From Massalongia carnosa (lineage: Eukaryota): DNA of 64,000 bases. The notes beneath the pieces are model-generated. The model saw only the letters and a program-made list of their open reading frames with translations, searched no databases and was not told the origin of the DNA. The stretch lies in the NCBI GenBank assembly GCA_965645245.1, contig OZ287068.1, forward strand, positions 3,472,001-3,536,000, given 5' to 3'. Positions 3,019 through 55,498 of the stretch are shown in pieces (the stretch's first letter is position 1; every line of letters starts with the position of its first letter). The position numbers and the translations under genes were made by a program.

Positions 3019-6000
3019 TTAGGTCTGAGCTCCGCGAGGACCACCAGGCTTGGTAGGCCTCAATCGATGAAAGTCTTCCAATAGGTCTGAGCAGTGGGTG
3101 ACGTCCTTAGCTTCAGTCCAGTCGGGGGCGTCCCAACCAGTCCATTTAATCAGGTATTGTAATCGTCTTCGAAAGAAACGGGAGTCCAAAATTTCTTCGA
3201 CTTCCCACTCTGTTTCACCTTCAACTTCGACAGGGGGAGAAGGAGCGGGTATGTGGCCGACGTGGGGGTGTTGAGAGACAGGTTCTAGAAGAGAGACATG
3301 GAACACAGGATGAACTTTCATAGAGGCGGGAAGGTCTAACTCGTATGCGTACTTGCTAACAACCTTCTTTATAATGAACCTTCCAAGCTTTTTCCAATCC
3401 AACTTTCGTGATGGCCGTTTGGTCTTTATATGCCTAGCGTCCAACCATACCTCGTCACCGACATGAAACATGGGAGCCGGGGTCCTGTTTGCATTAGCAG
3501 ATGCTTCATAACGCGCTTGAGCTAGGCGCATTTCGTCGCCGAGGTGTTCACTGATACTTTGCATTTTGGAGGCGAATTCGTCGGCGCTAATGACCTGCGC
3601 ATTGGGGGAGTCGCGATGAACAGGTTCAAAACCAAGACGGGGGTGGAAACCATAGTTAGCAAGGAACGGGCTGACGGACGTTGTTTCGGAGTCGGAGTTA
3701 TTGCTAGCGAACTCAGCCATGGGCAACCAGTCGGTCCAGTCATCTTGTTGATAGGATACATAGCTTCTGAGGTATTGTTCCATGACCGCGTTATATCGTT
3801 CCGTTTGACCGTCGGTCTGCGGGTGAAACGATGTGGATAGCCGACTGTTGATCTTTAGTCGTTCACATAGTGCTTTCCAGAAGTCAGCGATGAACTGGCC
3901 TCCTCGGTCCGATACAATGGAGTCAGGTAGGCCATGAAGTTTCCAGACATGTTCCACGTATAGCCTAGCCAAGGCCTTAGCGTCGGTGGTTTCTCTGCAT
4001 GGAATAAAATGCTTCATCTGGGTTAGTCGACAAACAACGCTTAGTACGGCGTTTTTATCACTACTTTCGGGTAGGCCAGTGACGAAATCCATGGATATGT
4101 CCTTCCATCGTTGTTGAGGAACAGGCAAAGGTTTCAACACTCCGTACTTAGCATGATGAGTAGCTTTACTGCGAGAGCATGTGTGACAGTGCTGAACATA
4201 GCGGGCAATGAACTGATGATATCGGGGCCAGTAGTAGTCTCGCGCCATTAGACTAAATGTTTTAGATCTGCCTGGATGACCGGCGACTGGACTGTCGTGA
4301 TATTCCTTGCATAGTCTCATTTTTAATTCATGCCAATCAGGGACATATAGCCTTTCCTTGTAGTATAGTCTTCCATTCCTGTCTTCACATTCGGCTAGGG
4401 TGATGTCCTTGCTGTGTCGAGTACCGTTTCGGAGAAGTGTCAGGATTTTGTTAGGCATAGGGTCATGTTCATATCCTAGATCAATGAGTTCGTCTATAGA
4501 TTTGTCTTCCGAGTCGGAGGCGGGAGCAAGGTTCGATGGGTCAATGACGATGTCAGGTTCAGAGTCGGACACGTCAGTCACACGAGGCACGTTGTTAGCA
4601 TGAAGTTCAAAATTATGCGGTTTTAATACCACCTGATTCTGATGTTCCAGTCTCACGTCCCCTTCCTTAGGAAGATCTCCTGATCTTCTAGTCAAAGCAT
4701 CAGGTTTTCCACCTAATTTGCCGGGTCTATACGTGATTTTGAAGTCGAAACGTGAGAGATATTCTGCCCAGCGGGCCTGTCGTCTGCTTAGCTGCTTGGT
4801 GGTGGTGAAATACTCCAGGTTTTTATGATCGGTGATTACTTTAACCGGGTATGCGGCTCCTTGGAGTTCTGGTCTCCATTCCTCGAAGGCACGTATTATG
4901 GCTAGTAGTTCTTTATCATAAATCTCGTAATTGCACTCCGCCGGTGACAAACGTCGCGAGAAAAAGGCTACGGGGCGAAGGACTCCATTGTCATCATACT
5001 GTGAGAGAACTCCGGCATTGACATAATCAGAAGAGTCAGTTTCAACCACGCTTTCCTTATCGGGGTCAAAATGCAGCAGAACAACGTCACTGGTGAACAT
5101 AGCCTTCAGATCCTCGAAGGCCCTGGTGCAGTCAGCGGTCCATACGAATGATGTCTTCTTTTTTGACATAGCAGTCAATGGTCCGACTATACGAGAGAAA
5201 CCCTTGACAAATCGACGATAGAAATTCGCGAATCCTATGAAAGCCTGCACGTCTTTTAGATTCTCGGGGGTGTTCCAATTCTGAATTGTCTCAATTTTCT
5301 TAGGGTCCATTCTTATACCATCTTTGGATATTATCAACCCTAAATAAATGGTCTCCGTGACATGGAATTCACACTTTGAGATGTCGAGTTGTAGTCCGGC
5401 CTTCCGTAAGGCCGTTAGTACTTTTCTCACATGACCCTTGTGTTCGCTCATGGAATTGCTGTAAATCAATATGTCATCGATGTACGCGGTGCAGAAGATG
5501 TCTAGATATTCACGAAGCACATCATTAATGTACTCCTGAAACGAGGATGGCGCTCCACAGAGCCCAAATGGCATGACGAGATATTCGAATAATCCATAAC
5601 GTGTTCGAAAGGCAGTTTTCCATTCCTCTCCATGAGTTACACGGAGACGGTTGAAAGCCGCGACAATATCCAACTTAGTAAAGACAACTGCCTTACTCAA
5701 GCGGTCCAAGGTTTCTCTGATCAAAGGTAGGGGGTATCTGTTCTTGATCGTTATCGCATTTAATGCTCTGTAATCAACACAAAAACGCAGGCCTCCGCCT
5801 GGTTTCCTAACGAACAACACCGGGGACGCAGCGGGGGAAGAACTGGATCGAATAAAACCTTTCTTCAGGTTTCCGTGAGATACTTCTGTAGAACTAACAG
5901 TTCGTCTCGACTCATGCCGTATAACGGGCCATACGTGGGTTCCTTTCCTTCCATCAATGGAATTTTATGATCATAGTTACGTCGCTCAGGAAGTTTATCA

Positions 6001-6935
6001 GCTTCTTTCTTGGAAAATACATCAAGAAATTCATGATATTCCTGTGGCAACACTGTAGCAGGGTCAATTTCCGGTTTAGGGTTCAAGGCACGCTCGATAT
6101 CTCTCATGTTCACTGTAAAGAGTTCACACTCTTTTTTCTTTGCTAGACGGGTAAAGGGGGCGGCCCCTATCATACATATGCTCAATGGTGGACTCTGATT
6201 GGTCGGCGGCGGAACGAGCGGGGACGTAACGGGTAAGGTCGAAGACAAGATAGGCGAAGGGGCGGCGGACGCGACCGCATTGGAGTTGACGCGCAGATTT
6301 AACCGGCCGGGCCTGTTAAATCTAACCGCCTCGGGACTAGTGTTATGAGCGATGATTGGCGCAGTCGTGTCGGGACTAGCGCTACTTTCAACGACGAGGG
6401 GCTTTTCCGCGCGAAGTTCTGGAACGTTTGTTATACCTATCACCGTATTTGACTCGGAGTTGTCAAGACAGTGCTGACGGCAGTAAGGTGAGTTGAAAGT
6501 GAGAGAGTTCATGGCCCATCGTATGCTGACGTCGTGGACTTGTAGCCATTTAATGCCGAGAACGATAGGATAATGACCGAGACTGGTAACGAGAAGGTTG
6601 GCGGGTTTGGAGTGGGAGGCGATGTCAAGGTTCAGACGAGCAAGGTGGGTAAGTTTTCCAGACGATACGGGACGACCGTCTGCGAGTTCAAGAATACGAG
6701 GTTTCTTCATGGGGGCGAGGGGTATGCGATGGTAGTGCGCGAACGAAGAATCAACAAAGGCAAATCCAGATGCTCCACAATCAATCAATGCATAAGTCTT
6801 GATTCTGATTGTTCCTATGGAGACAACAAGAGACACAACCAAATGCCTACCATCTAGGTTTTCTTCAGACAGAGGCTCTTTGGACAAGGAAAATGCCGAA
6901 ATTGAAATAGCTCCTTTCGATAATTGTCTTCGGCC
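3019..6935 (-). CDS. Gypsy pol polyprotein (protease, RT, RNase H, integrase, chromodomain) with one 1-bp frameshift near 5870
   Basis: LIDCGASG protease, YIDDIL, ETDSSD, HHCC, SDRGGQF..QTDGQTE, WEVEEILDSR...YLIKWTGW. Adding one A to GGAAACCTG restores TENLKKGFI. Confidence 0.9.
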
Positions 6936-7135
6936 NNNNNNNNNNNNNNNNNNNNNNNNNNNNNNNNNNNNNNNNNNNNNNNNNNNNNNNNNNNNNNNNN
7001 NNNNNNNNNNNNNNNNNNNNNNNNNNNNNNNNNNNNNNNNNNNNNNNNNNNNNNNNNNNNNNNNNNNNNNNNNNNNNNNNNNNNNNNNNNNNNNNNNNNN
7101 NNNNNNNNNNNNNNNNNNNNNNNNNNNNNNNNNNN
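6936..7135. other. Assembly gap (200 N)
   Basis: Run of N. Confidence 1.
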
Positions 7136-8351
7136 GTTAAGAATGACACTAAGAATTTAGCGTAACGCCACCACCTTACGACGCCACCACACCACCTGTT
7201 TTGACCCCATCATTAACCTCATTTTCAACGAAAGACCTCATCAACCTACATCACTGTTATCAATGATGTGTTTACGATAGCGACTGCGACGATCTTCGGA
7301 ATTATATGGCCTAATCACACCGTTGTCTCGACCCTCTCTATACTCGTTTCCTCCGTCCAAAGCAATGATTTCGTGTATATGTCTTGGAATTCTTTCTATC
7401 CAATGCTGAATTTGTTCCTGTTTCAGACTTTTTGTCCAGCACTGTGGCCATGCTTTGATGGCCGTAATGCAATTTCGAGGTGCTCCTTTACGTGTGGTTT
7501 GTTTTTTCATCCAGTACCAACATTGCTCGATCATGTTCAAATCAGGAGAATTACCCGGCCACAAAAAACGCAGGACTCCTGCATCCATAAAGACAATGTT
7601 CTGATGTTTAGAAGCATGACAGAGAGCCTTGTCCTCCTGAACAATAGTACCGGGACGAGCTTTCATACATTCTTTGGCAAAGGGTAGAAGTTTGGGTAAA
7701 AGAATGACCTTCTGATAACGGTACCAGTCGATGCCCCCTTTGCCTTTTCGGACCACTTTTCCATGCGTTTCATTCCACCTCCAGGCTGGTTTTCGACCTC
7801 CTTTCATACGCAGTCACATTCGTTGCATGCCCGTTTCCAACTCCCAATTCTCTTTCGCTACGGGCTCCAATATCTCATTGATTTTGTCAATATCTCTCTG
7901 AGCGGCGTGTTTTTCTGCTGCTGTCTCCGGCTTCCATATATGAAAAGGTCCTTTCTTTTCATACGAAAAACAACCCCAAAACATGAACTCGGAACATCCT
8001 TTCCATCTACGTCGGACGCACGATTGAGCATATTTTTCGCTTGGAGTTCGCCATTGAAGTCTTCGTCCACGTCGAGAGTTCAACACGATACTGGTTTCAT
8101 CGCTCCATATAACATTCTCCCAATCATCGAGAGTCCAGTGTTGATGACGCGAACAAAATTGCGATCGAGCATCTTTCATCGCTGAATCAAGACCTGGTTT
8201 CATGGTAGATTTGCAGGGACGAAAGTTATTGCGTCGAAGAACATTAAGATGAGATGGTTCTATGTCACGTGAGGCCCCTGAGTCAAAGTAAATTAAGAAT
8301 CACCCTCTGAAAATTCTTTCCTCATTCACTTCTTCTCACTCGGCCTCATCC

Positions 8352-8474
8352 ATCTCACTGACTCGTCGTCGACCCCACGTTGTCTCGGTGCCCCTACCTC
8401 GCTGTCAGTGCTTGCTGCTTTTCCAATCTCACTGACTCGTCGTCGACCTCACGTTGTCTCGGTGCCCCTACCTC
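8352..8474 (+). repeat. Two ~48-bp direct repeats in the 5' leader of the YR element
   Basis: TCTCACTGACTCGTCGTCGACC(C/T)CACGTTGTCTCGGTGCCCCTACCTC at about 8352 and 8427. Confidence 0.9.
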
Positions 8475-8477
8475 CCA

Positions 8478-9491
8478 ATGACGAACATCCGTTCCCAAAG
8501 CACCTTGATGGACGACATAGTCCCCGACCCCCAGGAGATTGTCGGATTGACGCAGGCCCAATCCAATCAAATCTTCGCCCTACAAAAGAAGAAAGCCGAG
8601 GCGGAAGCGAAGGCGGCCGAGGCTGAGGCTAGAATTGCCGAGTCCAAGGCATTGGTCGCCGAGAAGGAGGTGGAAAAAATGCAGCTAGAAATCGACTGCA
8701 TGCGCCGAGAATCTGACGCCCGAATAGCGGCCGTCATTCCTGCTGGCAAGCCGAGTCGTGTCGTCGGCGATGACGACGAGGACCTAGGTGAGATCCCTCT
8801 CGAAGTAAGAAGCATAGCACCCCGTTTCGCGGGCCTACCACAGGACGAGATCATCAAGATCTTTTCAAATAAATTCAAAGCCATCAACCTCTCCCGCCTC
8901 CGACACATGCACGGCATGCAATACGAGTCATACAAGGATCAAGACCGCATCGGCATCGAAGACGGCGCCTTGAGGTTGAGAAAGGCATCCGGGACCTACA
9001 AAGATTTCGGAAAGACGGTTCATGACGTCTGGACCGAGAGCTTCATCAACTACACCTCGATCATGGTCAGTCTTTTCGGGAAATCGAGTCAACAGCTTCA
9101 CGCCACCATGTCGGCATTCCACGGAAAAATCCTCACGCTGGCCAAGGTGTACGAGTGGCAGGAAGCAGTCCTCCCCCTCGCCATCGAAACCCACACCCAC
9201 ATCATCGCGTCTCAGCCATCCGACGCATCCTAATGGAAAATGCTCGACGAATTCCAAGCTCGATTCTGCACCCCTCTCACAGTCCTACGCCGTCGCCGCT
9301 CACGATCCCCGCCGTCCCGACGACCGACCCCGAGAGGAGACAGGGCCGAGAGGGCCGAGAAGGCAGCGGGGGAAATCTGCGACAAGTACAACAGCGGCAC
9401 CTGCACCTGGCCGTCGTGCTACCGACAGCACAAATGCAAATCGTGCGGCGCGGCTGGGCATGGCCAGAAGACATGCCCAACGAAGAAATAG
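8478..9491 (+). pseudogene. gag-like ORF1 of the YR element (coiled coil, C-terminal Cys/His fingers); in-frame TAA at 9231-9233
   Basis: ORFs 8454..9233 and 9240..9491 share a frame. C-terminus CDKYNSGTCTWPSCYRQHKCKSCGAAGHGQKTC. Confidence 0.75.
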
Positions 9492-9536
9492 GGGGTTGGT
9501 GCAGGAGGCAGTAGAATAGCTTCAATAGCTGAATTC

Positions 9537-11240
9537 ATGACGTCCCATCCCTGCTTACCTGCACCAATCAGACCAAATACAATCCCTTCGTTTCAACTCG
9601 TAGACGCATCTCGTCAGCGTTTGAAAGACAGCCCATCTCCCCTCGTACCGTCCGCATGGGCAACCCTACTTCAAGAGTATCCGGGCCCCCTCCGAGTCCA
9701 TCTGCCCATGATCCTTCGTTTCGGAGTACAAATCTGATACGAAGGCCCCACAGACATTCTTCGGATCGAAAAAAATCTGACATCAGCGAATGAGGACCCG
9801 GAAACGATCGAGAATAAGCTTCAAGAGGACCTCAGGAAGGGCCGAGTCAGACGAATAGCCGCCCCGAGTCAGCCATTTGTGGCCTCCCCCCTCGGCTTGG
9901 TCCCGAAACATGACGGAGGATGGCGACGCATTCATCATCTGTCTCATCCCAATCAAACATCAGTCAACGACAACATTCCAGAAGAGGCATCCAAATTACA
10001 ATACGCCAGACTCGACGACATTATTCAATTGATTCTGTCAGAGGGCAAAGGTGCTGTCATAGTGAAAAGAGACGTCAAAGACGCCTTTCGAAACGTTCCC
10101 GTCGCACCTCATCATCAATGGCTTCTGGGTTTCGGATGGAATGACGAATTCTACACCGAGACATGCCTTTCGTTCGGACTGTCGACGGCCCCGTTCATCT
10201 TCAATCTTTTTGCGGAAGGCTTTCATTGGATTTTGGAATCCTTTCTACAATGGAGATTACATCACTATCTAGACGACTTCGTTGCAATTTGCCCATCCGA
10301 GACATCGTCAGAACGATTGCACCAAGAAACAAAAGCCTACAACATTCTCACCGACATTCTCGGCATCCCGAGAAACGACTCAAAAGACGCCGAGGGAACG
10401 ACAGCGACAGTCTTCGGACTCGAGGTCGACACCATCAACAGTCTTATTCGTCTGCCAGCGGACAAGCTGGAAAAAGCGAGAATCATCACTACAAAGGCAC
10501 TAAACGAGACGACAATCAGCCTCGGCGACATGCAGTCAATAGCGGGCTTCCTAAGCTTCTGCGCACAGGCAGTCAAATTGGGCCGAGTCTTCTTACGATT
10601 ATTCTAGAATTTTTTAGCCTCATTTCCCTCGGGCAGTCATCGTCGGGTCAAAAGAAGAACTCCCACATGGGTCAGACAGGATCTCATCTGGTGGAACAAA
10701 CTTTTAGTGGACTTCAACGGTATTGTCTTCTTCGAGACGTCAACACGAGACACGATCAAGGTGCATACGGATGCATGCCTCACGGGTCTCGGAGGCTATT
10801 TTCAACAAGACAACGAGCTCGTGAATCAAAAAAACGCATGTAGGGCCCGAGTCCTAGTCCTCAATCAGGAAGAATCACCGAGCATAAACGTCCGAGAAGT
10901 CGAGGCTATCCTTCTAATCCTTCAGAAATGGGCGCCGACATGGCGACATCGACAGATCCTTGTCTTTACCGACAGCGACACAGCATACACAGGATTCACG
11001 AATCTAAGCCTCAAGGGACCGGCCAACGCGCCTCTACGAGAAATACTGTCCATAGCTGCAAAGTGGGACAGCGTACTACGTTGTCAATGGATCAGTGGCA
11101 CTTCCAATGGACTAGCAGATGCCCTGTCACGTTTTGATGATGAAAGATTGGCTAACTTTTGCCCTCATTGGCAGAACCCATACAATTCGATGAACCTCCC
11201 TCCACCTACCTATCCTCCACACCAGGGTCAGCCCTGGTAA
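9537..11240 (+). pseudogene. DIRS/Ngaro-type RT-RNase H; in-frame stops at 9735-9737 and 10605-10607
   Basis: One frame: SPLGLVPKHDGGWRRIHHLS, KRDVKDAFR, LSFGLSTAP, HYLDDF, HTDACLTGLGG, TDS, NGLADALSR. Confidence 0.9.
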
Positions 11241-12322
11241 AACGCCTCGTCTGGCACGGACACTCGGCGGACACGAGAAAAGGGTACGGGACGGCGATCG
11301 ACTCATACGAGGCATTCTGCGCGACGACGGGACGCACGTCGTGGCCTGCAACAACCGAGTCCCTCGAGGAATGGCTAGCCGGTCGACTATACGGGGGCGG
11401 CACACCCAAGCAGGGAAAGATAAAACCAGAGACGGCAGCGAGCTACCTCGCCGGCCTCAGATCATACCATGTAGACCGAGGATACGGCCTCACCCCATTC
11501 GAGGGGCCGAGACTTCAATTGATGCTGAAAGGGGGAAAAAGGATCTTTTCTCAGACAAAAAGAAGACGCCTACCCATTTCAAAAGAATTACTGACAAAAA
11601 TCACCAGTATTCCCGCTCATTCGGCCGAAGACCTCAACATCGACGCGACATTCAAAGTTGCATGGGCAGGGTTCCTCAGACTCGGGGAAATCACCTACAC
11701 TGTCGCCGATCGTAAGAAGACATCTTTTCAGAGATTGAAACCTACACGAGGTGACATCTCATTCGCCGAGAACGATCAATACGCGACATTACGTCTCAAA
11801 AGAAGCAAAACAGACACAGATCACTCAGGAGTTCAGATAGTGCTGGCAGCGACCAATGAGAGCACTTGCCCCGTGACAGCACTACGGCGTCTTTTCAGAA
11901 ATGATCCTCAGCCATCTACATCCCCGCTTTTTCGTCTTGGCACCGCATTCACCAGAGCCTCCGTCATAGCATCCCTGAAAAAGAGACTGATAGCCGGCGG
12001 CATCAACGACTCGGCATACTCGGGACACAGCTTCAGAAAAGGAGTAGCACAACACGCCGCCGACCACGGGATGCTGGATGAGAGTATTCAGAGACTCGGA
12101 AGATGGTCATCAAACGCGTTTCAGCTATACTTTCAGACGTCCCAGGCCTCACTATTCAATTTGAACCTCAGTTTTCAAAAAGGCATCCCTCTGGCAGTCC
12201 CACGTGCTGTCGTCGCCGAGACGAATCCTACAAACTCCTACCCCTACTCAATTGGGCATTCCATTGGGCGTACAGGTCAACCAGGGCATCGATCCGGAGC
12301 GCCGCCGGGCACCTCCATCTAG
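11159..12322 (+). CDS. Tyrosine recombinase of the YR retrotransposon; open frame overlapping the RNase H end
   Basis: Catalytic motifs FLRLGE (R), LKRSKTD (K), GHSFRKG (HxxR), LGRWSSNAFQLY (W, Y). Confidence 0.93.
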   Translation: MPSLAEPIQFDEPPSTYLSSTPGSALVKRLVWHGHSADTRKGYGTAIDSYEAFCATTGRTSWPATTESLEEWLAGRLYGGGTPKQGKIKPETAASYLAGLRSYHVDRGYGLTPFEGPRLQLMLKGGKRIFSQTKRRRLPISKELLTKITSIPAHSAEDLNIDATFKVAWAGFLRLGEITYTVADRKKTSFQRLKPTRGDISFAENDQYATLRLKRSKTDTDHSGVQIVLAATNESTCPVTALRRLFRNDPQPSTSPLFRLGTAFTRASVIASLKKRLIAGGINDSAYSGHSFRKGVAQHAADHGMLDESIQRLGRWSSNAFQLYFQTSQASLFNLNLSFQKGIPLAVPRAVVAETNPTNSYPYSIGHSIGRTGQPGHRSGAPPGTSI

Positions 12323-13245
12323 ATCATCGCCGTCGGGCACTGCCGTCGGGCATCATCTATCGGATCGTTGAGCGTCAGCAGACGCCTCGGGCCTAGAAGA
12401 TGAGGTTCTCACCTCAGCACCGACCCCGAGTCACGTGCCTAGGCCTGCCCGGGCTGACCTGTGTCGTTCCCATGCCCAATCAAATTCAAGCTATCAAATC
12501 AATTCATCCAATTAAAAGCCCCCCCCAGCGCAAGCGAAGGTAACGGCACCGATAAGGGTCATAGAATGGTTGTAGATGAAACTCCGTGCTCATATCCCAA
12601 AACGGCTGAGGATTTTTCTCTACCATTTCGATCATGACGAACATTGTTTAAAATGACCTGTTCTCCCTCAGGCGTCACTTTGGTAGGACGTCCTGAACGA
12701 GGTGCATCTTGCACATATTCTCCCTTCAATATTCGTGAAATAGTGGGATCATATCCTCGATCTCGTGCCTTACGTTTGAGATAGCTGATAGATTGGGTGG
12801 AAACTCCGGTGACTGCTTGAACGACTTTGGCTGCTATGCCATATTCAATCAGGGATAATGCTTGTAACTTTTGTCCAATGGTGTCATGAAATAAAGTTTG
12901 AGTTAAAACCTAATTGATTACCCCGAACCGCCAAGCGGCGATCGAGGTAAAAGCCAGCTGAAAGCCTATTCAGATTCATCCTCGGTATGAGTCTGAATAA
13001 ACTCCTTACTCCACTCCACCAATCTCCTCACTCCACTATACCCTCTTATCGCTAGAACGATCACATCCACTGGCCCACTTATCGCTCCACCTTATCGCCG
13101 CCACCATCACCAAAATCTCTCATCTAGGGTGAAGGTAAAACATGAGAAAGAAGGGGCTGGCTCAGGTATAAAAAGAGGACATATCCAGTAGATAGCTGAC
13201 TCCTCGTCCGACGTCTTGTATAGCAAACCACCTCCTAGCTATAGC

Positions 13246-13458
13246 TGTCAGGACTCGGGTGTGGGAGCGCTAAATCCAACGGCTCTTTCCGACCGAAGCT
13301 TCGGAGATAAGCTTCTAGAGCCGGATGGAAACTTCGAGAAGAAGGGCAAACGGGCATATAGATTTCACATTCTTCTTTGTAGATAGATTTCTCTTCTTCA
13401 TGCTTAGTCTCTTAGGTAGCTGACTACTATTCGTCTTCCCTGGATAGTGGTTCTTACA
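13246..13458 (+). repeat. 5' LTR
   Basis: TGTCAGG...CTTACA, matching 18743-18955. Confidence 0.97.
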
Positions 13459-13460
13459 TT

Positions 13461-13471
13461 AGACTAAGCAT
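13461..13471 (+). promoter_or_regulatory. Self-priming primer-binding site (Tf1/sushi type)
   Basis: AGACTAAGCAT is the reverse complement of LTR 13400-13410 (ATGCTTAGTCT). No TGG tRNA-type PBS follows the LTR. Confidence 0.8.
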
Positions 13472-13726
13472 CTTCTTTAACCCTTGCTATCCTGAACACG
13501 ATATTAAACCGTTCAACCAGGAAAATTAGAAGAAGAACCCGGAACTTAGACTAGAACCAGATCATAGGACCTTAGAAGCAAGGATTTCTAGGCCACCAGA
13601 ATTACCAGAATCAAAAGAAGAACTCAGACCCAGAAGAACCAGAACCCAGGATCGTAGAAACCAGGATTTCTCGGCCATCGAATAGAAGATCACAAGATAA
13701 GAACACCCCCAAGAAAGAAAGAAGAA

Positions 13727-15022
13727 ATGCCCCGAGTAATCAGCGAGCCTCGAAGGAGTAGGCTCACTATGGACGAACCCATGGAGGGCCGACGTGAGTC
13801 CATTGTCCCTAATATTATCGATGATGACTCCCCATATAGCATCGACTCCGTGGATAGACTGAATGAATTTGTCCGCCAGGACCCCCAGCGGGTGGTGGAA
13901 ATGATAACTGAGTTGAAGACGGAGTCCCGAACGAAGACCCACCTATTGAACAAGGTGGCCGAAAGATTCAATGAAACGTTAGAGATAGCCCGGACCCTTC
14001 GCGATGAGCGGGACTCGGCCCAAGAGGAATTGGATAAAGTTAAGGTGATAATCCAATTTCTTCAAAACACCAACATATCGTCCGCAAGCACCGTATCGGC
14101 CGAGAATGTGCATACACACACGACCACTACCGCGTCAACACCTGCCCCCGAAGGAGTTGGCAAATCTTCCAAGCTTCCTGACCCACCCATTCTCGAAAAT
14201 AATAAAGACGACAACTTCGAGGACTGGCTATCTAGCATGCGAAATAAGCTAGAAGGCAATGCGGATTGGTACCCTACCGAGGCCATGAAAAAGGCATACG
14301 TACGGACTCGGGTTGGTGGTGAGGCAGTCAAGCATATAGCCTCTAGATTTAGAAAGGAGTCTACCAAACCATTTACCACTGCTGAAGAGATTTTCGATGA
14401 TTTAAACCGAGTATATGGTGACCCTCACAAGGAACAAACAGCACTGCGAGAATTCCGCGACCTTAAACAAGTGGGTAAATATCGAGAATTCCATGCCTTC
14501 TGGTCAGAATTCCAACGCTTAGCCAACGAACTTGAATATTCCGAAAAGACCCTACTGAATGAGCTCCGCAACAAGATGAACTTTGAGCTCCAGAAGATGC
14601 TAGCCGTCGAGGCCTACAAGGCCACCGATTTGTATGAATTCGCACGCCTATGCATGCATACTGATCAGACCATCCGCGAGGTTGAGACCAAGACGAAAGG
14701 CTATCGAAAGAACTTTGTTGGCCCCTCAATACCTATCGCAAGCACGGCCGGTGGGACCACCTCCATCGTAAAGGCCTCCACCCCCGCATTAACCCGTACT
14801 CCCGCAATGCCTTCCGCCACCAGCAGCCGATCTTCAACGCCCTTTATGGCCCGAGCCCCCCATCCCGATCCAATCATGGAGAAAAGAATGAAGGAAGGAA
14901 GATGTTTTAACTGCGATCTGACCGGGCATATGGCCAAAGACTGCCCTCAGCCTAGAAAGGGACGGGTTAGCGAGATGAGCGCAGAAGCAGAAGATTCGGG
15001 AAAAGACGCACCTCCGTCATAG
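13727..15022 (+). CDS. gag: Gypsy Gag (431 aa) with CCHC zinc knuckle
   Basis: KLPDPP..FEDW capsid region; CFNCDLTGHMAKDC. Confidence 0.93.
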   Translation: MPRVISEPRRSRLTMDEPMEGRRESIVPNIIDDDSPYSIDSVDRLNEFVRQDPQRVVEMITELKTESRTKTHLLNKVAERFNETLEIARTLRDERDSAQEELDKVKVIIQFLQNTNISSASTVSAENVHTHTTTTASTPAPEGVGKSSKLPDPPILENNKDDNFEDWLSSMRNKLEGNADWYPTEAMKKAYVRTRVGGEAVKHIASRFRKESTKPFTTAEEIFDDLNRVYGDPHKEQTALREFRDLKQVGKYREFHAFWSEFQRLANELEYSEKTLLNELRNKMNFELQKMLAVEAYKATDLYEFARLCMHTDQTIREVETKTKGYRKNFVGPSIPIASTAGGTTSIVKASTPALTRTPAMPSATSSRSSTPFMARAPHPDPIMEKRMKEGRCFNCDLTGHMAKDCPQPRKGRVSEMSAEAEDSGKDAPPS

Positions 15023-15036
15023 ACGCGGCGGGGGTA
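14998..15036 (+). promoter_or_regulatory. Programmed -1 ribosomal frameshift signal
   Basis: Slippery G GGA AAA in the gag frame, followed by a stem ACCTCCGTC/GGCGGGGGT. The pol frame is -1 and open from this site. Confidence 0.75.
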
Positions 15037-18000
15037 GATGAGTTGGTTATCACATCTTTCTTTATGGAGGATGATTTATTCGATGACCATCCAGTAATGG
15101 AAGATTGTATCGTAGGAAATAAATTTAATACGAGAGCGATGATTGATACTGGATCTACTGGTTATTGTTTTGTTGATAGACTAACTGCGCAGGAAATATG
15201 TGAAAAGGCTAATATCTCACCGGTGACGTTAAATAGACGGAAAGAGATAAAGGCATATGATGGAAGAAAAGGCAAGCCTATTACCCAGGCCATTTATCCA
15301 TCTCTGAAAATTGGAAATCATACCGAGAGCTCAACACCAATGTTGATCACCGAGCTGGGCCAACAAACGATTATTCTTGGCAAGCCTTGGATGCGAAAAC
15401 ATGGTGTTAGCTATCATGGGCATACGAATTCGATTTCTTTTCGTCCCGATCATTGCAATCATCTAGGTGCCCCTGAAAGGCCTTTCCCATCGTCGCCAAT
15501 CAGGAGAGAAGAACCGGGCTCAACAAAGGACACCACGCCTATATTCCAACCAAAGAAGATATTGAAAAGAGACGAACCCGATGAAAAGAATCATAGCAAC
15601 TCGAACCCGATTTCAGTTCGAAGATCAAGAAAGGAAGATATCTTGAAGCAAAAGTCTTGGAGAAAAGACGCCGAGAGCGAAGAAGCCCTGGATATAGCGA
15701 TGATAGGTGCAGACCCATTTAATGTATTAACGAAACAAAAGGATGTCGAGATATTTGCAGTCTCGCTGAGAGATATCAACTTTGAACTAGCCAAGGGAGA
15801 AAAGCCAATCACCGATCCTAAGACCATAGTCCCCCCCGAGTATCACGATTTTCTTGATGTTTTCTCTAAGGAAAAAGCTGATGAACTGCCCCCTCATAGA
15901 AAGCATGACCATACCATCGAATTGCTAGAAGGTAAAGGACCCGGGCATGCCCCGCTATATAATATGTCAGAGGGAGAACTCCTACTGGTCAAGAGATATT
16001 TGGAAGAAAATCTGAAGAAAGGATTTATTACAGCCAGCTCGGCCCCTTTTGCCTCGCCGATACTATTCGCCAAGAAACCGAGTGGTGGACTTCGGTTCTG
16101 CGTCGATTATCGAAAGCTAAACGAAATCACCAAAAAAAATCGATATCCCCTACCTCTGATATCTGAGATAATGTCTCGATTGGCCAGGGCTAGATTTTTG
16201 ACAAGAATAGATATTCGACATGCCTTTAACCGACTTAGGATGAAAACCGAAAAGGACGAAGATCTCACAACCTTCCGCACGCGATTTGGGTCATATAAAT
16301 CTCTAGTATTACCCTTCGGACTGACCAACGGCCCTGCTACGTTTCAGAACTTCATCAACGATACCTTCTTAGAATATCTAGACGAATTCCTAATAGCCTA
16401 TCTGGACGATCTCTTGGTTTATAGTGAAACCATGACTGACCACCGAAAACATGTTCGAAAAGTTCTACAAAAGCTTCGAGAAGCTGGTATTCAGGCTGAT
16501 GTGGATAAATGCGAATTCCATGTGACCGAAACAAAGTTCCTAGGAGTGGTAGTCGGGCGGAATGGGATCAAGATGGACCCTACCAAAATTGAGGCAGTCG
16601 TCGAATGGGCCATCCCTAGGCATCTTAAACAGGTGCAGGCCTTTCTAGGATTTATCAACTTTTATAGACGTTTTATCAAAGACTTCTCCAAAATAGCCAA
16701 ACCCCTCGTACATCTAACTCGAAAAGACGAACCATTCAATTGGACCCCAGCCTGCCAAGCAGCTTTTTCCGAATTGAAAAGACGGGTGACCGAGGCCCCG
16801 GTCCTCGCGCATTTCAGCCCAAGCCGAGAAACGTTCGTGGAATCGGATTCATCTGATTATGTGTCAGCCGGAGTATTATCGCAAAGAGGTGAAGATGGAC
16901 TTATCAGACCAGTAGCCTTCTTTTCAAAGAGCCTGTTGCCAGCCGAATGCAATTATGAAATATACGATAAAGAATTGCTTGCAATAATCAAATGTTTCGA
17001 ACAATGGAGGCCTGAGCTGCAATCCACCGAGCTCCCAATCAAAGTGTTGACCGACCACAAAAGCTTGGAATATTTCATGACAACCAAAAAGCTAAATAGG
17101 CGACAGGCCAGATGGGCTGAATTTCTGGCCGATTTCAATTTTGTCATCACATACCAAGCTGGAAAATTCCATACAAAGGCAGATGCACTAACTAGAAGAC
17201 CAGGAGACAGGCCCGAATCAGAGGAAGATGACAGGCAAAGGCATCAACATCAGATAATCTTACCTCTCGAAAGCCTAGACCCTCAAATCCAAAAGGAAAT
17301 GGGGTTTGAAATGAACGAGATCAACGCGGAAAAGTCGAAAGATCCGCTCGAGAATAATGCCAAACTATTTGTCCCCGAAGAAAAGAGAATGAAGCTGATA
17401 CAGGAAGTTCACGATCAACCAGCCGTTGGCCATCCGGGAATAAAGCGGACCTACGAGATGATGAAGAAATTCTTTTTTTGGCCAAAGATGAAAGGGACCA
17501 TAGAACAATACATTCGAAATTGTCATACATGCAAAAGAGCAAAAGCTCCAAGGGACGGTTATTCCGGACTATTAAATCCGCTACCTATACCAGACCGGCC
17601 CTGGACAGATATATCAATGGATTTCGTAACTGGCCTACCTGAAAGCAAAGGTCATAATGCAATATTAATGGTAGTAGACCGATTTTCCAAGATGCATCAT
17701 TACATTCCATGCACCACGGACGAAGAAGGGACAACTGCCGAAGAGACGGCCCGAATGCTAATAAAACATGTATGGAAATTGCATGGCCTACCGACCACGA
17801 TAATCTCAGATAGGGGACCTCAATTCGTATCGCTAGTATGGAAATCGCTATGCGTAATGCTGGGAATAAAAGCCAAGTTATCAACCGCATTCCATCCCGA
17901 GACCGACGGTCAAAGCGAAATATCCAATCAAGAAATGGAGCGATATCTGAGAACCTATGTCAATTATCAGCAAGATGACTGGACAGAGTGGCTATCGATG

Positions 18001-18705
18001 GCCGAGTTCGCATCAAATGCCTGTGTCTCAGCTTCAAGTGGATTATCTCCATTTCAGTTCAACTATGGGTTTGAACCGAGGATGAGCTTCTATCCGATTG
18101 ACGCATCTACCGGATCGGCCAGAGAAAGAATATTGAAAACTCGAGCAAAAAATATCGGCCAAGCAATGGAGAAAATCTGGGAATTCAGAAAAGAAAACCT
18201 AGTACGAAGCCAAGAAAGTCAGAAGAGATTCGCGGACAATCATCGGGAGGAGGCACCAATCTATAAAGAAGGAGATGAAGTTTGGCTATCAACCAAAAAT
18301 ATCAAAACGGAAAGGCCTTCGAAAAAGCTAGATCATAAGATGATCGGACCGTACAAGATATTAAAAGCTTTGGGGAATAGCTATAAGTTAGATCTTCCAG
18401 CATCGATGAAAATACACGATGTTTTCCATTCATCATTACTCCGACCAGCAAGTAAAGACCCATTGCCCGGACAAATACCCCCGCCTCCACCACCGGTAAT
18501 TATTGACAACGAGGAAGAATTTGAAATTGATGATATTTTGGATTCAAGAACTTTCAACAAGAAGCTACAATACAAGGTAAAATGGAGCAATTACCCACCG
18601 GATAACACATGGTATCCGGCCGAAGATTTTGCGAATTCAAAAGAAACTGTGGAAGAATATCATCGGAAATATCCAAAGAAGCCGCGACCGAAGCTAATCA
18701 CATGA
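14998..18705 (+). CDS. pol: Gypsy Pol (protease, RT, RNase H, integrase, chromodomain), uninterrupted
   Basis: MIDTGS, YLDDLL, ESDSSD, HHCC, SDRGPQF..ETDGQSE, FEIDDILDSR..YKVKW. Confidence 0.95.
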   Translation, partial: GKRRTSVIDAAGVDELVITSFFMEDDLFDDHPVMEDCIVGNKFNTRAMIDTGSTGYCFVDRLTAQEICEKANISPVTLNRRKEIKAYDGRKGKPITQAIYPSLKIGNHTESSTPMLITELGQQTIILGKPWMRKHGVSYHGHTNSISFRPDHCNHLGAPERPFPSSPIRREEPGSTKDTTPIFQPKKILKRDEPDEKNHSNSNPISVRRSRKEDILKQKSWRKDAESEEALDIAMIGADPFNVLTKQKDVEIFAVSLRDINFELAKGEKPITDPKTIVPPEYHDFLDVFSKEKADELPPHRKHDHTIELLEGKGPGHAPLYNMSEGELLLVKRYLEENLKKGFITASSAPFASPILFAKKPSGGLRFCVDYRKLNEITKKNRYPLPLISEIMSRLARARFLTRIDIRHAFNRLRMKTEKDEDLTTFRTRFGSYKSLVLPFGLTNGPATFQNFINDTFLEYLDEFLIAYLDDLLVYSETMTDHRKHVRKVLQKLREAGIQADVDKCEFHVTETKFLGVVVGRNGIKMDPTKIEAVVEWAIPRHLKQVQAFLGFINFYRRFIKDFSKIAKPLVHLTRKDEPFNWTPACQAAFSELKRRVTEAPVLAHFSPSRETFVESDSSDYVSAGVLSQRGEDGLIRPVAFFSKSLLPAECNYEIYDKELLAIIKCFEQWRPELQSTELPIKVLTDHKSLEYFMTTKKLNRRQARWAEFLADFNFVITYQAGKFHTKADALTRRPGDRPESEEDDRQRHQHQIILPLESLDPQIQKEMGFEMNEINAEKSKDPLENNAKLFVPEEKRMKLIQEVHDQPAVGHPGIKRTYEMMKKFFFWPKMKGTIEQYIRNCHTCKRAKAPRDGYSGLLNPLPIPDRPWTDISMDFVTGLPESKGHNAILMVVDRFSKMHHYIPCTTDEEGTTAEETARMLIKHVWKLHGLPTTIISDRGPQFVSLVWKSLCVMLGIKAKLSTAFHPETDGQSEISNQEMERYLRTYVNYQQDDWTEWLSMAEFASNACVSASSGLSPFQFNYGFEPRMSFYPIDASTGSARERILKTRAKNIGQAMEKIWEFRKENLVRSQESQKRFADNHREEAPIYKEGDEVWLSTKNIKTERPSKKLDHKMIGPYKILKALGNSYKLDLPASMKIHDVFHSSLLRPASKDPLPGQIPPPPPPVIIDNEEEFEIDDILDSRTFNKKLQYKVKWSNYPPDNTWYPAEDFANSKETVEEYHRKYPKKPRPKLIT

Positions 18706-18742
18706 CAGCGATCAGGAGCTCGCTAACCAAGAGGGGGGGTAG

Positions 18743-18955
18743 TGTCAGGACTCGGGTGTGGGAGCGCTAAATCCAACGGCTCTTTCCGACCGAAGCTTCG
18801 GAGATAAGCTTCTAGAGCCGGATGGAAACTTCGAGAAGAAGGGCAAACGGGCATATAGATTTCACATTCTTCTTTGTAGATAGATTTCTCTTCTTCATGC
18901 TTAGTCTCTTAGGTAGCTGACTACTATTCGTCTTCCCTGGATAGTGGTTCTTACA
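18743..18955 (+). repeat. 3' LTR
   Basis: Matches the 5' LTR and is preceded by the PPT. Confidence 0.97.
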
Positions 18956-19973
18956 ATAGCCTCATTAATAAAGACATCTTGATCATCCAATCCAATTCCT
19001 AGGAACATTAGTTCAATTCCCAACCCAGTCCTTGACAAATGGTCAGACTGTTGTTCTGAGTACGTGAGGTCATATTTGAAGCATACAAAAATCTATTTTA
19101 ATGATATTTGATGCTGAACAGGTCAAAATGTACAAAAAAACCCTTTTACTTACTAGCGTCATGCAGAAAGGACGCTAAATAGCATGTCATCCTCCGTAGA
19201 GATTCATATTATCAAGAATTCACCTCTATTCTTTTGCGTCATCTTCCCCCACAATCAAAGTTGAGCTAATACAAATATAGTTTAGCGGTTACTGATCAAG
19301 CGGTTTTGATAGGACGAGTTCCAAACGCATTAGTGTATACAAGGTACAGTGAAAGGCCGCATCGTATGTATCTAGCCAATAAGCTGAGCTCTTTATCATC
19401 AGAGTTTGCTGTCTGCCAACCACGGCAACTTCTGTCGCCGTCTTCGCGACACAACGCACCAGCGGTAATAAAGACGGGCTATCTCTCCTCTCATATCTGA
19501 TAGACATGTCCCCATCAACAGCAAAGTTAGACGTCAAGAAATACCGGCAGCAATCCTTAGCTCTAACATCGTTGAACAAGCAAGATAAGACAATCACCGC
19601 ACACTTTAAGCCCTCCTTCAGCTGACAGTAGCAGCACGTCCCCGGGGTATTGAGCGAAAGCTGTCGCTCACAAAACTTCGCAAGAGCGCACGCCTACAAG
19701 AGAAACTACGTCTTCATGTACAATTAGAGAGACAAGAGCAAGTATATAAAGAGGTATGTTTACTATCTCTTTTCCTACTTGGCTTTATTAGACTGACTGA
19801 AGCCGAAGCCCCCTTCAAATCCTGATCGAAAGCGAAAACGAAGTCACGAATCTAGTCAGAACTGCAAGACCCAAGCTGAAGAAGTTGGCCATTCCCATTT
19901 TCAAAAGGACAAGCCTCGAATTTCAGCCGAACCTCAACAAAAGCGATCACGTACTTCGCTCGCAAATCTCACT

Positions 19974-24802: not shown

Positions 24803-27800
24803 ATGAGTTTTGGCATCAGCGTGGGCGACTTTATCAAGGTACTGGAGCTTGCGAATGGGATCCGGACGCGGTTCGTTGATGCTCCAGACCAATTTAAGGC
24901 AATACATGATGAGTGAGTCTCCCTAATAGTTACACAGCAGATGCTTACTGTTTGATTCCCAGGGTCAGGAGCCTCTCAATTATCCTTCAGGATGTCCACA
25001 TCATTTCACAGCAGCGGGATCTTACCTACAAGCAAGAGAAGGAGTTGCGTTGCATTGCAGCGGGATGCCATAATGTCCTTAGTACACTGGATAAAACCTT
25101 GGAGTAGTACCAAGAACTAGGTTCTGAGCCCAACGATGGCGACCTTCGGGGCTTCCCCTTCAAAGTCCGAAGAAGGTTGAAGAGACTGAAATGGGAGCCG
25201 GAGGATATAAAGGAGCTTCGAAGCCGTGTTATCACAAATATATCTCTGTTAACGTCGACAGGAAGGAACAGGATGATGGCTATTGGATTCAGACGAGTTT
25301 CAGAGATGGTCGAGTGAAAGCAAGCAGATATTGTTCTGTCCAGGCATTCCAGGAGCGGGCAAGACGATAATAACAGCCATTGTTGTCGAGCATCTCTGCA
25401 CTAAATTCCGGAAATACCCCAATATAGGCATAGCATACCTATATTGCAACTTTCGACGACACCAGGAGCAGAAGCCCATAGATCTTCTCGCAGGTCTACT
25501 GAAACAGCTAATCCAACGACGACCTTCTCTGCCCGAGAAGGTTATAAGACTTCACGAGAAGCACAACAAGGATCGGACAAGCCCATCATCTGACGAAATC
25601 TCGAAAGTATTGCAGTCAACTGTCGCTGAATATTCAAGGACTTTTATTATCATCGATGCGCTAGACGAATGTCAATTTTCCGAGGGAAGTCGCAGGAAGT
25701 TCCTGCTGGAGATTTTTAGCCTTCAGGCCAAGACTGGAGCAAATGTTTTTGCGACTTCACGGTTTATCCCAGAGATCATTAGAGAGTTTGAAGAAGGTAT
25801 ATCATTAGAGATCCAGGCCAGTAATGAAGATGTGCGGAGATATCTAGAGGGTCGTATGTCACAGCTACCATCGTGTGTTCTTAAAAGTCGTGACTTGCAG
25901 GAGAAAATTGTGACCGAAATTATCCAAGCAGCTGATAAAATGCACGTACCTCCTCCTGGTGCTAAAATTGAAAGAGCTGTTTAACACTTGCTCAGGTTTC
26001 TCCTTGCGCAGCTTCATCTGGATTCACTAATTGATAAAACAACAAAAAAGGAGATCATAAATGCGTTGAAAGGGCTCCCAAAAGGATCAGAAGAACTTGA
26101 TCGTGCTTATAAGGAAACTATGGAAAGGATTGAAGGCCAGAAAAAGGGCTTTCAAACCCTTGCAAAGCGTGTTCTCTCATGGGTCACCTGCGCCAAGAGA
26201 CCCCTGACCATCTTTGAGCTCCAGCATGCCCTTGCTGTAGAGGTTGGTGAGTTGGAACTTGATGAAGAGAATTTCCCAGAAATCGAGGACATGGTTTCTG
26301 TATGTGCTGCTTTAATCACTGTTGATGAGAAGAACAACATTATCCGCTTGATTCACTATACGACACAGGAATACTTTGAGCGGACGCACATATCTTGGTT
26401 TCCCAATGCGCAGACAAATATCGCAATGGCCTGCGTTACCTATCTATCATTCGATGCTTTTGAAACTGGTTGCTGTCAAACAGATGAAGAGTTCGAGGTA
26501 CGACTAAATGTGAATGTATTTTATGACTACGCCGCACGGAATTGGGGACATCATGCTCATGAAGCTTCAACTGAGCTGAGACAGTCAATTCTGGATCTTC
26601 TTAAAAATGAGGCCAAGGTCTCTAGCTTCAGCCAGGCTATGATGGCCTCTAAAGACGTCATTAACTACAGTCAAATAGTAGTAAGGCAAATTAAAGGAGT
26701 ACACGTTGCGGCATACTTCGGACTAAAGGAAGTGATGATAGCTCTCCATGATCATAGATATAATCTAAGTTTGAAGGATATTTATGGTCAGACGCCCCTG
26801 TTATACGCTGCACGGAATGGGCACGAAGCAGTGGTGAAGCTGCTGCTTGCAACGGAGGGTGTTGACCCTGACTCCAAGGATATGCTCAGGCAGACGCCAC
26901 TGTCATACGCTGCACGGAACGGGCATGAAGCAGTGATGAAGCTGCTGCTTGCAAAGGAGGGTGTTGACCCTGACTCCAAGGACGACGACAATCAGACTCC
27001 ACTGTTATGGGCTGCTAGGAGTGGGCATGAAGCAGTGATGAAGCTGCTGCTTGCAAAAGAGGGTGTTGACCCTGACTCCAAGAACGAAAGAAATCGGACG
27101 CCACTGTCAGTGGCTGCAGAGAATGGGCACGAGGCAGTGGTGAAGCTGCTGCTTGCAAAAGAGGGTGTTGACCCTGACTCCAAGGACGACGACAATCAGA
27201 CTCCACTGTTATGGGCTGCTATGTTTGGGTATGAAGCAGTGGTGAAGCTGCTGCTTGCAACGGAGGGTGTTGACCCTGACTCCAAGGATATGCTCAGTCA
27301 GACGCCACTGTCATACGCTGCACGGAACGGGCATGAAGCAGTGATGAAGCTGCTGCTTGCAAAGGAGGGTGTTGACCCTGACTTCAAGAATTATTTCAGT
27401 CAGACGCCACTGTTTGTAGCTGCTATGTTTGGGTATGAAGCAGTGGTGAAGCTGCTGCTTGCAAAAGAGGGTGTTGACCCTGATTCTAAGGACAAAGACA
27501 ATCAGACCCCACTATTATGGGCTGCTAGGAGTGGGCACGATTGGTGAAGTTGCTGCTTGCAAAAGAGGGTGTTGACCCTGACTCCAAGGACAAAGACAAT
27601 CAGACTCCACTGTTATGGGCTGCTAGGAGTGGGCACGAAGCAGTGGTGAAGTTGCTGCTTGTAAAGGAGGGTGTTGACCCTAACTCTAAGGGTGAGGAAA
27701 AGCGGACTCTACTGTTATAGGCTGCTAGGATTGGGCATGAAGCAGTGATGAAGCTGCTGCTTGCAAAAGAGGGTGTTGACCCTGACTCCAAGGACGAATA

Positions 27801-54600: not shown

Positions 54601-55498
54601 GGACTGCTGTCTCCTCTGCGTGCTGGATAGCTTCAACTAACTCATGGGCCAAGTTGTCGAGTTCTTGAACTGTGCTCACGCTCCTAGGTGCCGGGAGCTT
54701 GTCTGTCATCGTGTTTAGTAGCTTTTTCCCATCAGTCTTAGACCACATACGAGAGGACCTTATGGCCCTCTTAACTGTGGTGATATCGAATGCTGTGCCA
54801 ATGGGTTAGTGATCTGAGTCACTATCCAACTCTCTTCTCACATCGCACATGAGTACGGCTGAAGCCACTGCGGGGGTTGCGAACGTTAAGTCTATCGTCC
54901 TCTATGCTAATCTATGATCGTATGTTATGGTGCCAGGGGGGAGCAGAAGTTCTAGCTCGCTTTGATCGAGAATCTCCAGTAGTTGTTTGCCTCCGGATGT
55001 TGATGATGGTAGTCTTCGCCAGTCCATAGGGGATGGTGAAGATTGAAGTCCCCTACCACTATGTGTTCTCTCCCCACCTCTAGCGCCTTATTAGGTCTGA
55101 CAAGGTGCTGTAGTTTCCCTGAGAGGGGGAGGGATTGTAGATGTTATGGATATTGATGACTCGCTGGGTTCGCCAGGAAATTCCAAGTGCAAAGTCATCA
55201 GATCGGGAGAGTGGAAGGTTACCTTCCAAGAGGCGCTTGCTATGTCTTTGTTGACGAACATGCATACTCTCGGAGGGAGCTCTTGTTCTCCTGTTTCGGG
55301 GGGATAGAGAAGGTGAAAAACATTTTTGACCGGATTGTGCGTGGTGTGTTGATAGGGGTTCCCCGCCCAGGGTTCCTGGATGGCCAGGATGCCGTATTTC
55401 ATGGTTTCCTCCCTGCGAAGGAAGTCCGCCATGACAGTGTTCTTGGATTTGTTGCAGTTGTACTGAAGTATGGACAGATAGTGGGTGTATTCACTCAT
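51648..55498 (-). pseudogene. LINE ORF2 (APE endonuclease, RT, RNase H, C-terminal knuckle), frameshifted
   Basis: ILQYNCNKS, AIQEPW, SDH, YRPIALLNTLGK, VPQGSPISP, YVDD, IYTDGS, WIPGHMGVEGNEIAD, CPCG..IVHHVLLEC. Confidence 0.92.

Follow-up and report, generated by a model that had tools for sequence, protein, structure and literature searches.

The element and its insertion site

A 64,000-nucleotide stretch of Massalongia carnosa DNA (assembly GCA_965645245.1, contig OZ287068.1, positions 3,472,001 to 3,536,000 of the forward strand), hereafter the window, carries a retrotransposon with a tyrosine recombinase (YR) inside a Tc1-like transposase gene. The element is a single plus-strand insertion of 4,319 bp (8247-12565 in the coordinates of the window, used throughout), has AGA as its first and last three bases and encodes a gag-like protein, a reverse transcriptase (RT) with RNase H and a YR, in this order (Table 1). 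As it encodes RT and RNase H and has a tyrosine recombinase instead of a DDE integrase, it belongs to the YR retrotransposons (order DIRS in the broad sense). A preliminary description had presented it as a complete element of a lineage with minimal end structures, lacking the expected terminal repeats. We read it tentatively, and with somewhat less than even confidence, as a dead copy of a multicopy Ngaro-type fungal retrotransposon nested in the Tc1-like gene, the lack of repeats being a property of this copy and not of its family.

Table 1. Features of the YR retrotransposon and of the gene that it interrupts (ORF, open reading frame; UTR, untranslated region).
Feature	Position	Strand	Remarks
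Tc1-like transposase gene, C-terminal part (insertion host)	7241-8246	-	one internal stop
Left AGA, core trinucleotide of the left junction	8247-8249	+	empty site has one such unit
5' UTR (231 nt)	8247-8477	+	left-end motifs AGATGAG and GTCACGTG (8264-8271); 49-nt direct pair
49-nt direct pair, 98% identical, 74 nt apart	8352-8400 / 8426-8474	+	in 5' UTR, just 5' of the gag ATG
gag-like ORF, 251 aa	8478-9233	+	coiled-coil-like N-terminal part; TAA at 9231; assigned by position
Zinc-finger segment, gag frame	9234-9491	+	CX2CX4HX4C knuckle; TAG at 9489; zf-CCHC_6 0.0034, under the Pfam cut-off
pol, gag frame	9492-11240	+	RVT_1, RT_RNaseH; terminal TAA at 11238
RT (RVT_1) match	9900-10334	+	1.2e-13
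RNase H match	10749-11132	+	RT_RNaseH 1.6e-5; RVT_3 7.8e-4
YR ORF, 388 codons stop to stop, -1 frame	11156-12322	+	85-nt overlap with pol
YR catalytic positions	R175 (11678), K218 (11807), H291 (12026), R294 (12035), W317 (12104), Y325 (12128)
3' UTR (243 nt)	12323-12565	+	ends in AGA
Echo of the left end: AAGATGAG, GGTTCT, GTCACGTG	12397-12437	+	left-end order, other spacing; support from about 4% to about 0.3%
Right AGA	12563-12565	+	last three bases of 3' UTR
Tc1-like transposase gene, N-terminal part	12566-12909	-

The flanks of the element are the two halves of one Tc1-like transposase (Pfam HTH_Tnp_Tc3_2, 3.1e-4; DDE_3, 5.3e-9). A search initiated with the left half, favouring longer proteins, identified 196 relatives, the nearest of which are uninterrupted paralogs on megabase contigs (P0140, 94% identity; P0141, 86%). 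Joins of the two flanks were made by script and aligned with 16 of these relatives. The join that retains one AGA reads across the site exactly as P0140 and P0141 do, whereas the join without AGA requires a one-residue gap against all 16 homologs. The insertion is thus bounded to the base, and the target had one three-base unit, which is now seen on both sides. The earlier claim that the ends are fixed by the interrupted gene, with AGA at both junctions, is therefore confirmed by the uninterrupted paralogs.

Integration of a circular intermediate across a 3-bp core, as proposed in the preliminary description, fits the AGA...AGA ends and is already published for DIRS1-like elements: the circle integrates across a 3-bp sequence common to element and target, so that one trinucleotide stands at both ends and nothing is duplicated (PMC3266345, PMC7192593). 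DIRS1-like elements (DIRS-1 of Dictyostelium; Piednoel et al. 2011, PMC3266345) have the trinucleotide at both ends and once in the target, as here. However, a 3-bp target duplication would give the same picture as a crossover within a shared AGA. The target site is not noticeably palindromic, with 2901 of 5000 random 33-mers being equally so. The hexamer ATGGTT, which starts the right flank (12566-12571), recurs within the element, 7 nt in from its left end (8254-8259); the target and the circle junction may share more than AGA, or the match may be due to chance.

The first ORF is assigned as gag by its position only, as it matches no Pfam family and no Atlas entry above 0.87. Gag and pol share one frame, with a single TAG between them (9489-9491). 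The pol ORF of a relative (P0260) opens within about eight residues of this codon, which is therefore probably the natural gag stop, and the same-frame gag-TAG-pol arrangement would fit stop-codon read-through. When the six pieces of the element were compared with Pfam, RT, RNase H and a weak zinc knuckle were the families recognised, the YR ORF by itself no more than grazing Phage_integrase (E 0.018). No methyltransferase, hydrolase, protease or DDE integrase (rve) domain was detected in these six pieces or in 11 ORFs in other frames or on the minus strand, in agreement with the preliminary description, which had seen neither a methyltransferase nor a hydrolase. Since the YR ORF starts before pol ends, there is no space for an additional domain between RNase H and YR.

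The 388-codon ORF encodes a Cre-like tyrosine recombinase. Among 29 aligned YR relatives, residues R175, K218, R294, W317 and Y325 do not vary and H291 hardly does; 25 of the 29 match Phage_integrase (best E 7.4e-5). A profile of these 29 sequences aligned the HxxR...W block with that of Cre, although weakly (E 0.36). The AlphaFold model (mean predicted local distance difference test score, 84.1) has Cre and Tre as its top Foldseek matches (E 6.8e-10), with Xer, phage and Flp recombinases also among its 54 matches at E<=0.001. An N-terminal peptide, xLAxPxxFxxPP, is conserved in most of the 29 relatives. The ORF opens directly after a TAA in the -1 frame, and its first ATG does not occur before 11522, that is, 122 codons pass without one; no canonical slippery heptamer is visible in the overlap with pol (11150-11240). 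This arrangement points to expression of the YR through frameshifting or from a non-AUG start.

The element is Ngaro-type by its coding architecture only. Its size of about 4.3 kb is typical of Ngaro-like elements, and to our knowledge the fungal members of this group are expected to have no hydrolase ORF, as is the case here. It has the same order of gag, RT-RNase H and YR on one strand, with no methyltransferase, and its YR ORF is frameshifted relative to pol, as in all four fungal Ngaro groups of Muszewska et al. (2013, PMC3783388). Where it differs is in the absence, in this copy, of the split direct repeats (SDRs) A1...B1-A2-B2. The Cafeteria element has the structure A1-[ORFs]-B1A2B2 (PMC8547959), and in a Xenopus Ngaro family the A (236 bp) and B (152 bp) repeats are 100% identical (PMC9210276); the UTRs of the present element (231 and 243 nt) are near these sizes. 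DIRS1-like elements differ in having a methyltransferase and inverted terminal repeats (ITRs) as well as an internal complementary region (ICR); their YR overlaps pol upstream, whereas here it lies downstream of pol. The element also lacks the methyltransferase and the SDRs of PAT-like elements. Unlike long terminal repeat (LTR) retrotransposons, it has neither long terminal direct repeats nor a DDE integrase, while a gypsy element next to it shows both LTRs and rve with the same tools. Cryptons likewise have YR insertions flanked by short direct repeats that stem from identity of element and target and not from duplication (PMC13465315), but have no RT, RNase H or gag, all three of which are found here.

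Searches for relatives yielded information on the state and the age of the copy. In-frame stops are found at 9231 (TAA), 9489 (TAG), 9735-9737 (TGA) and 10605-10607 (TAG). At 9735 and 10605 other copies (P0349 and P0270) read sense, which makes both of these stops private nonsense mutations. With at least two private nonsense codons in RT/pol, the copy is dead; the preliminary description was right in calling it complete as far as the presence of all parts is concerned, but its coding capacity has been lost to in-frame stops. Only three of the 388 YR residues are private (222, 281 and 297, where 16/16, 17/17 and 16/17 sisters differ). The copy is therefore young, and long repeats could not have decayed away.

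Among 5955 candidates, 272 were YR relatives at E<=1e-3. The best, 98% identical, represents 54 sequences clustered at 90% identity, whose contigs measure 0.6-3.8 Mb. One identical 266-aa form of the YR is present on 11 contigs, where paralogs and the same locus in several assemblies are indistinguishable. Judged by these matches, the family is multicopy. With X at its two stops, pol matched 17,010 representative relatives at E<=1e-3, of which 1,049 also passed E<=1e-30; the 28 longest of the top 150 all contain RVT_1, two contain Phage_integrase and none a methyltransferase. When the right ends of other copies were sought through an ORF crossing the right junction, no candidate was obtained.

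The Atlas label of the nearest YR cluster is DNA breaking-rejoining enzyme, commonest in Basidiomycota, and Ngaro-like elements are known from Basidiomycota, above all from rusts and Agaricomycotina (PMC3783388). The named relatives of the Tc1-like transposase, on the other hand, all belong to Pezizomycotina (55-58% identity). A multicopy Ngaro family in an ascomycete would be unusual, because a survey of fungi reports a single remnant there (PMC3783388).

Repeats, the left-end echo and folding of the ends

The element was compared with the whole window using blastn (word size 7, E<=10) and, separately, with a repeat search (seed 7). The blastn matches comprised the element itself, one 49-nt direct pair and chance matches of at most 27 nt; there was no second copy in the window and no long direct or inverted repeat of the element on either strand, in which the repeat search concurred. 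The longest inverted pair is 25 nt long, 76% identical and internal, not terminal, and Tandem Repeats Finder reported only a 9-nt microrepeat. The 49-nt pair could be a duplicated promoter or leader module. As a positive control, the same tool recovered the LTRs of the neighbouring gypsy element (220 nt, 99% identical; 13246-13465 and 18743-18962).

Direct comparison of the UTRs was similarly negative. The 5' and 3' UTRs resemble each other no more than random segments do (score reached by 337 of 1000 nulls; three of four scoring schemes concur), and the same holds when the 3' UTR is reverse-complemented before comparison with the 5' UTR (score 14.5, reached by 749 of 1000). Candidate B1 and B2 regions, taken as 128 nt on each side of the echo described below, scored 10, which 976 of 1405 nulls reach, and no repeat of the 3' UTR itself or of the 5' UTR was found in the 3' UTR. 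Two further candidates were rejected: the 3' end (12511-12552) matches the 49-nt unit of the 5' UTR in inverted orientation only at null level, and a 17-nt inverted pair (12272-12288 and 12446-12462) is reached by 167 of 1405 nulls. Thus neither the combination of ITRs with an ICR nor SDRs are present, as had been claimed, and the self-comparison on both strands that the preliminary description had called for brought no conventional repeats to light.

One way in which such repeats could be missing is an assembly artefact, the genomic B1-A2-B2 having been collapsed by the assembler across the two B repeats with removal of A2. The assembly is scaffolded, with a 200-N gap (6936-7135) 1.1 kb to the left, and the locus lies in a nest of repeats. 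The sister copies, however, are on contigs of 1.2-3.8 Mb, which suggests long reads spanning a 0.5-kb structure, and neither the 220-nt LTR pair of the gypsy element nor the 49-nt pair of the element, with its 74-nt spacing, has been collapsed. We consider this explanation the least probable of those discussed here.

The only trace of a split direct repeat is an echo of the left end near the 3' end. AAGATGAG starts at 12397 and GTCACGTG at 12430, their left-end counterparts lying within 8246-8271, and the spacing differs between the two places by 3 nt and about 17 nt. The echo lies 128 nt from the right end, about where A2 would start. It is present as the preliminary description had quoted it, but its significance hangs on the statistic used. 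When the joined ends were aligned, with gaps, to the 3' UTR, arms of 20, 30 and 40 nt gave scores attained by 39, 123 and 8 of 1000 shuffles, respectively; of 2000 pseudo-junctions taken from the element, 83 (about 4%) did as well. The score of the echo, 15, is also matched elsewhere in the element, at a minus-strand site near 8332 (17) and a plus-strand site near 9782 (15.5). The chain of exact blocks AGATGAG and GTCACGTG (15 nt), a statistic chosen post hoc, is attained by 13 of 5000 random 30-mers when these are set against the real 3' UTR (about 0.3%), and by none of 5000 random targets or of 188 element segments. In the 64 kb, GTCACGTG occurs three times where 1.17 occurrences would be expected (at least three are seen in 12 of 100 shuffles), two of the three being the left end and the echo. 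A comparison of the joined ends (80+80 nt) with the interior under strict gap costs missed the echo; its best hits were unrelated sites with a score of 23, which 112 of 300 shuffles reach (shuffle mean, 22.1).

It is conceivable that the region 12389-12437 is a miniature B1-A2, about 50 nt long and ICR-like, which serves as the template for rejoining the ends as in Ngaro or DIRS-1. The alignment of the junction with the 3' UTR does span the join (junction positions 34-79 of 80) and includes AGA, and the ICR halves of DIRS1-like elements are only 36-67 nt long (PMC3266345). The B side, however, is nearly absent, with about 6 of 10 bases matching, and likeness on the A side, where there are indels, amounts to about 70-75%. 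In the Ngaro replication model A2 is near-identical at insertion (PMC6681497); in a copy this young, so diverged a sequence is therefore not the A2 or junction template which that model demands. Given also the weak significance in the shuffle and pseudo-junction tests above, we regard a functional short junction copy as very improbable.

Both ends of the element are predicted to be strongly folded as RNA. The 5' UTR has a z score of -3.2 (none of 200 shuffles folds as well), with the outermost 11 nt of the element paired to 8348-8358 at the base of a 112-nt hairpin. The region 12260-12565 has a z score of -2.9 (none of 100 shuffles folds as well), and a long stem formed by 12263-12288 and 12446-12478 encloses both the YR stop codon and the echo.

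A partial relative without its 5' end was found on a 3,150-nt contig, L001 (JAWWPC010000316.1), which is filed under a metagenome-assembled genome of the actinobacterial Kribbellaceae and is most simply explained as fungal DNA binned with a bacterium. Its YR is 43% identical to that of the element, and the order RT-RNase H-YR and the -1 overlap are the same; positions 1650-1760 of the contig compared with 11150-11240 of the window share a 27-nt stretch of the overlap with 3 base differences. There is no direct repeat of at least 14 nt, and thus no B1/B2 pair, in the 435 nt that follow its YR, although the contig may end early. This region matches the 5' UTR of the element with a score of 23 (reached by 8 of 500 shuffles and 2 of 500 window segments), which holds in three of four scoring schemes. 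As a candidate A2 the match was rejected: it ranks fourth of 3168 windows in one scheme and falls outside the top 12 in another, the better ones being gappy chance alignments.

Loss in one copy or minimal ends in a family

An internal copy of the joined ends, either as SDRs or as an ICR, is thought to be needed to restore what transcription omits. The known groups of YR retrotransposons all use SDRs or ITRs with an ICR, and the need has been shown experimentally for DIRS-1, in which deletion of the ICR abolishes retrotransposition (PMC7192593). A copy with base-exact ends and no internal junction copy is therefore a clean test case.

SDR-less Ngaro-type sequences are not rare in surveys. Xenopus Ngaro copies are commonly without all or part of the SDRs, and the consensus of one Xenopus family, DIRS-54_XT, has none, yet two of its copies do (PMC9210276). 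The VIPER consensus was long held to be repeat-less until better copies were read (PMC6681497). Among Ngaro elements described as being without terminal repeats, a single truncated element from Neosartorya was the only one that turned up in a literature search (PMC3783388). Like the element described here, the SDR-less Ngaro and VIPER sequences combine a Ngaro-type coding region with no detectable SDRs, which is explained there by degenerate copies or an incomplete consensus. Unlike in those cases, the ends of the present element are pinned to the base by the interrupted gene; this excludes simple truncation and leaves internal loss or a real lack.

Internal loss, which we favour slightly over a lineage with minimal ends, could have occurred as follows. 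A circular cDNA with AGA at its closed junction would recombine, through the YR of the element, with an AGA in the target, a step modelled on DIRS-like elements, and the crossover would leave AGA on both sides with no true duplication. From a canonical A1-[ORFs]-B1-A2-B2 arrangement, A2 and one B would be lost, either through the two B repeats, a few hundred bases apart, recombining or slipping against each other, or through the RT switching template from one to the other. The product would be A-[ORFs]-B with untouched outer ends and flanks, which agrees with the observed 231-nt 5' UTR, ORFs and 243-nt 3' UTR. With no internal counterpart of its junction, a copy of this kind would be unable to restore its ends in a further round, and the nonsense mutations would have come since. 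Since the family is multicopy, working copies with some end-restoring device must exist, which makes loss of B1-A2 in a single copy plausible; the presence of such repeats in all characterised YR groups, the Xenopus and VIPER precedents and the UTR sizes point the same way.

Several observations weigh against such a loss. The DNA structure of the element is known from a single copy, and this copy bears no mark of a deletion. The echo lies about where A2 would start, which is unlikely by chance on the post hoc block chain, while a clean deletion between B1 and B2 predicts no echo at all; moreover, two of the only three occurrences of GTCACGTG in 64 kb are the left end and the echo. Finally, the partial relative on L001 also has no direct repeat of at least 14 nt in its 435 nt after the YR, with the caveat that this contig may end too early.

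These same observations bear on the alternative that the whole family is without long SDRs, being transcribed approximately from end to end and closing its circle without a long internal template. In that case the AGATGAG...GTCACGTG motif, seen at the left end and once more 128 nt before the right end, would represent a remnant of A2 or a common protein-binding site and not a copied repeat. That the insertion is bounded to the base and yet shows no repeats is what such a family would display, as is an echo at the expected place of A2 that passes the block-chain test; the strong folding of both UTRs, with the 5' end in a 112-nt hairpin, is expected of cis-acting RNA ends, and the lack of a B1/B2 pair after the YR on L001 points in the same direction. 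Against it stand the universal use of SDRs or ITRs with an ICR in the known YR groups and the ICR deletion in DIRS-1. In addition, the echo is unexceptional by gapped alignment, with 83 of 2000 nulls and other sites of the element scoring as high, and the block statistic was picked after the pattern had been seen. Much of the preliminary interpretation stands, namely a YR retrotransposon with the order gag-RT-RNase H-YR, exact ends and a single AGA in the target, but the lineage with minimal ends that it proposed has one dead copy as its basis. One dead copy cannot separate a trait of the lineage from loss of B1-A2 in the copy, and we consider minimal ends of the whole family a possible but somewhat less probable explanation.

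A bolder version, which seems to us somewhat less probable again, is that an active fungal Ngaro lineage has given up SDRs, copies itself end to end and closes its circle at AGA without an internal template, the diverged AGATGAG...GTCACGTG being kept as a recognition site. If true, an SDR-free active lineage would contradict the view, supported by the ICR deletion in DIRS-1, that an internal junction copy is indispensable.

If intact sisters share the structure seen here, the Ngaro-type replication model needs another end-restoring route. If, as we are inclined to expect under loss in this copy, the sisters are longer, the copy documents a route of decay in which B1-A2 is lost while the ends are preserved, and this route would explain many "repeat-less" Ngaro elements in fungal and other surveys as well as gaps in consensus libraries. 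Either way, AGA...AGA together with an empty site verified by paralogs provides a tidy Ngaro-type example of insertion at a trinucleotide core.

Neighbouring elements

The gypsy element used above as a control is a Ty3/gypsy chromovirus with RT, RNase H, integrase and a chromodomain (13246-18962), located about 340 nt from the start of the interrupted Tc1-like gene; it is young, as its 220-nt LTRs are 99% identical. A second gypsy pol, a 981-codon ORF on the minus strand (3019-7136), abuts the 200-N scaffold gap (6936-7135), which also cuts the far end of the Tc1 element. The remaining window is a nest of transposons (regions 41277-46202, 52583-54805 on the minus strand, 25985-27547 and 59953-62634). 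Its contents include Helitron-like and PIF1 helicase ORFs, an RT of the LINE (long interspersed nuclear element) type and two NLR-like proteins. Both NLR-like proteins combine a GPI (glycosylphosphatidylinositol) inositol-deacylase winged-helix domain with ankyrin repeats, and one of them has 14 DUF7104 repeats.

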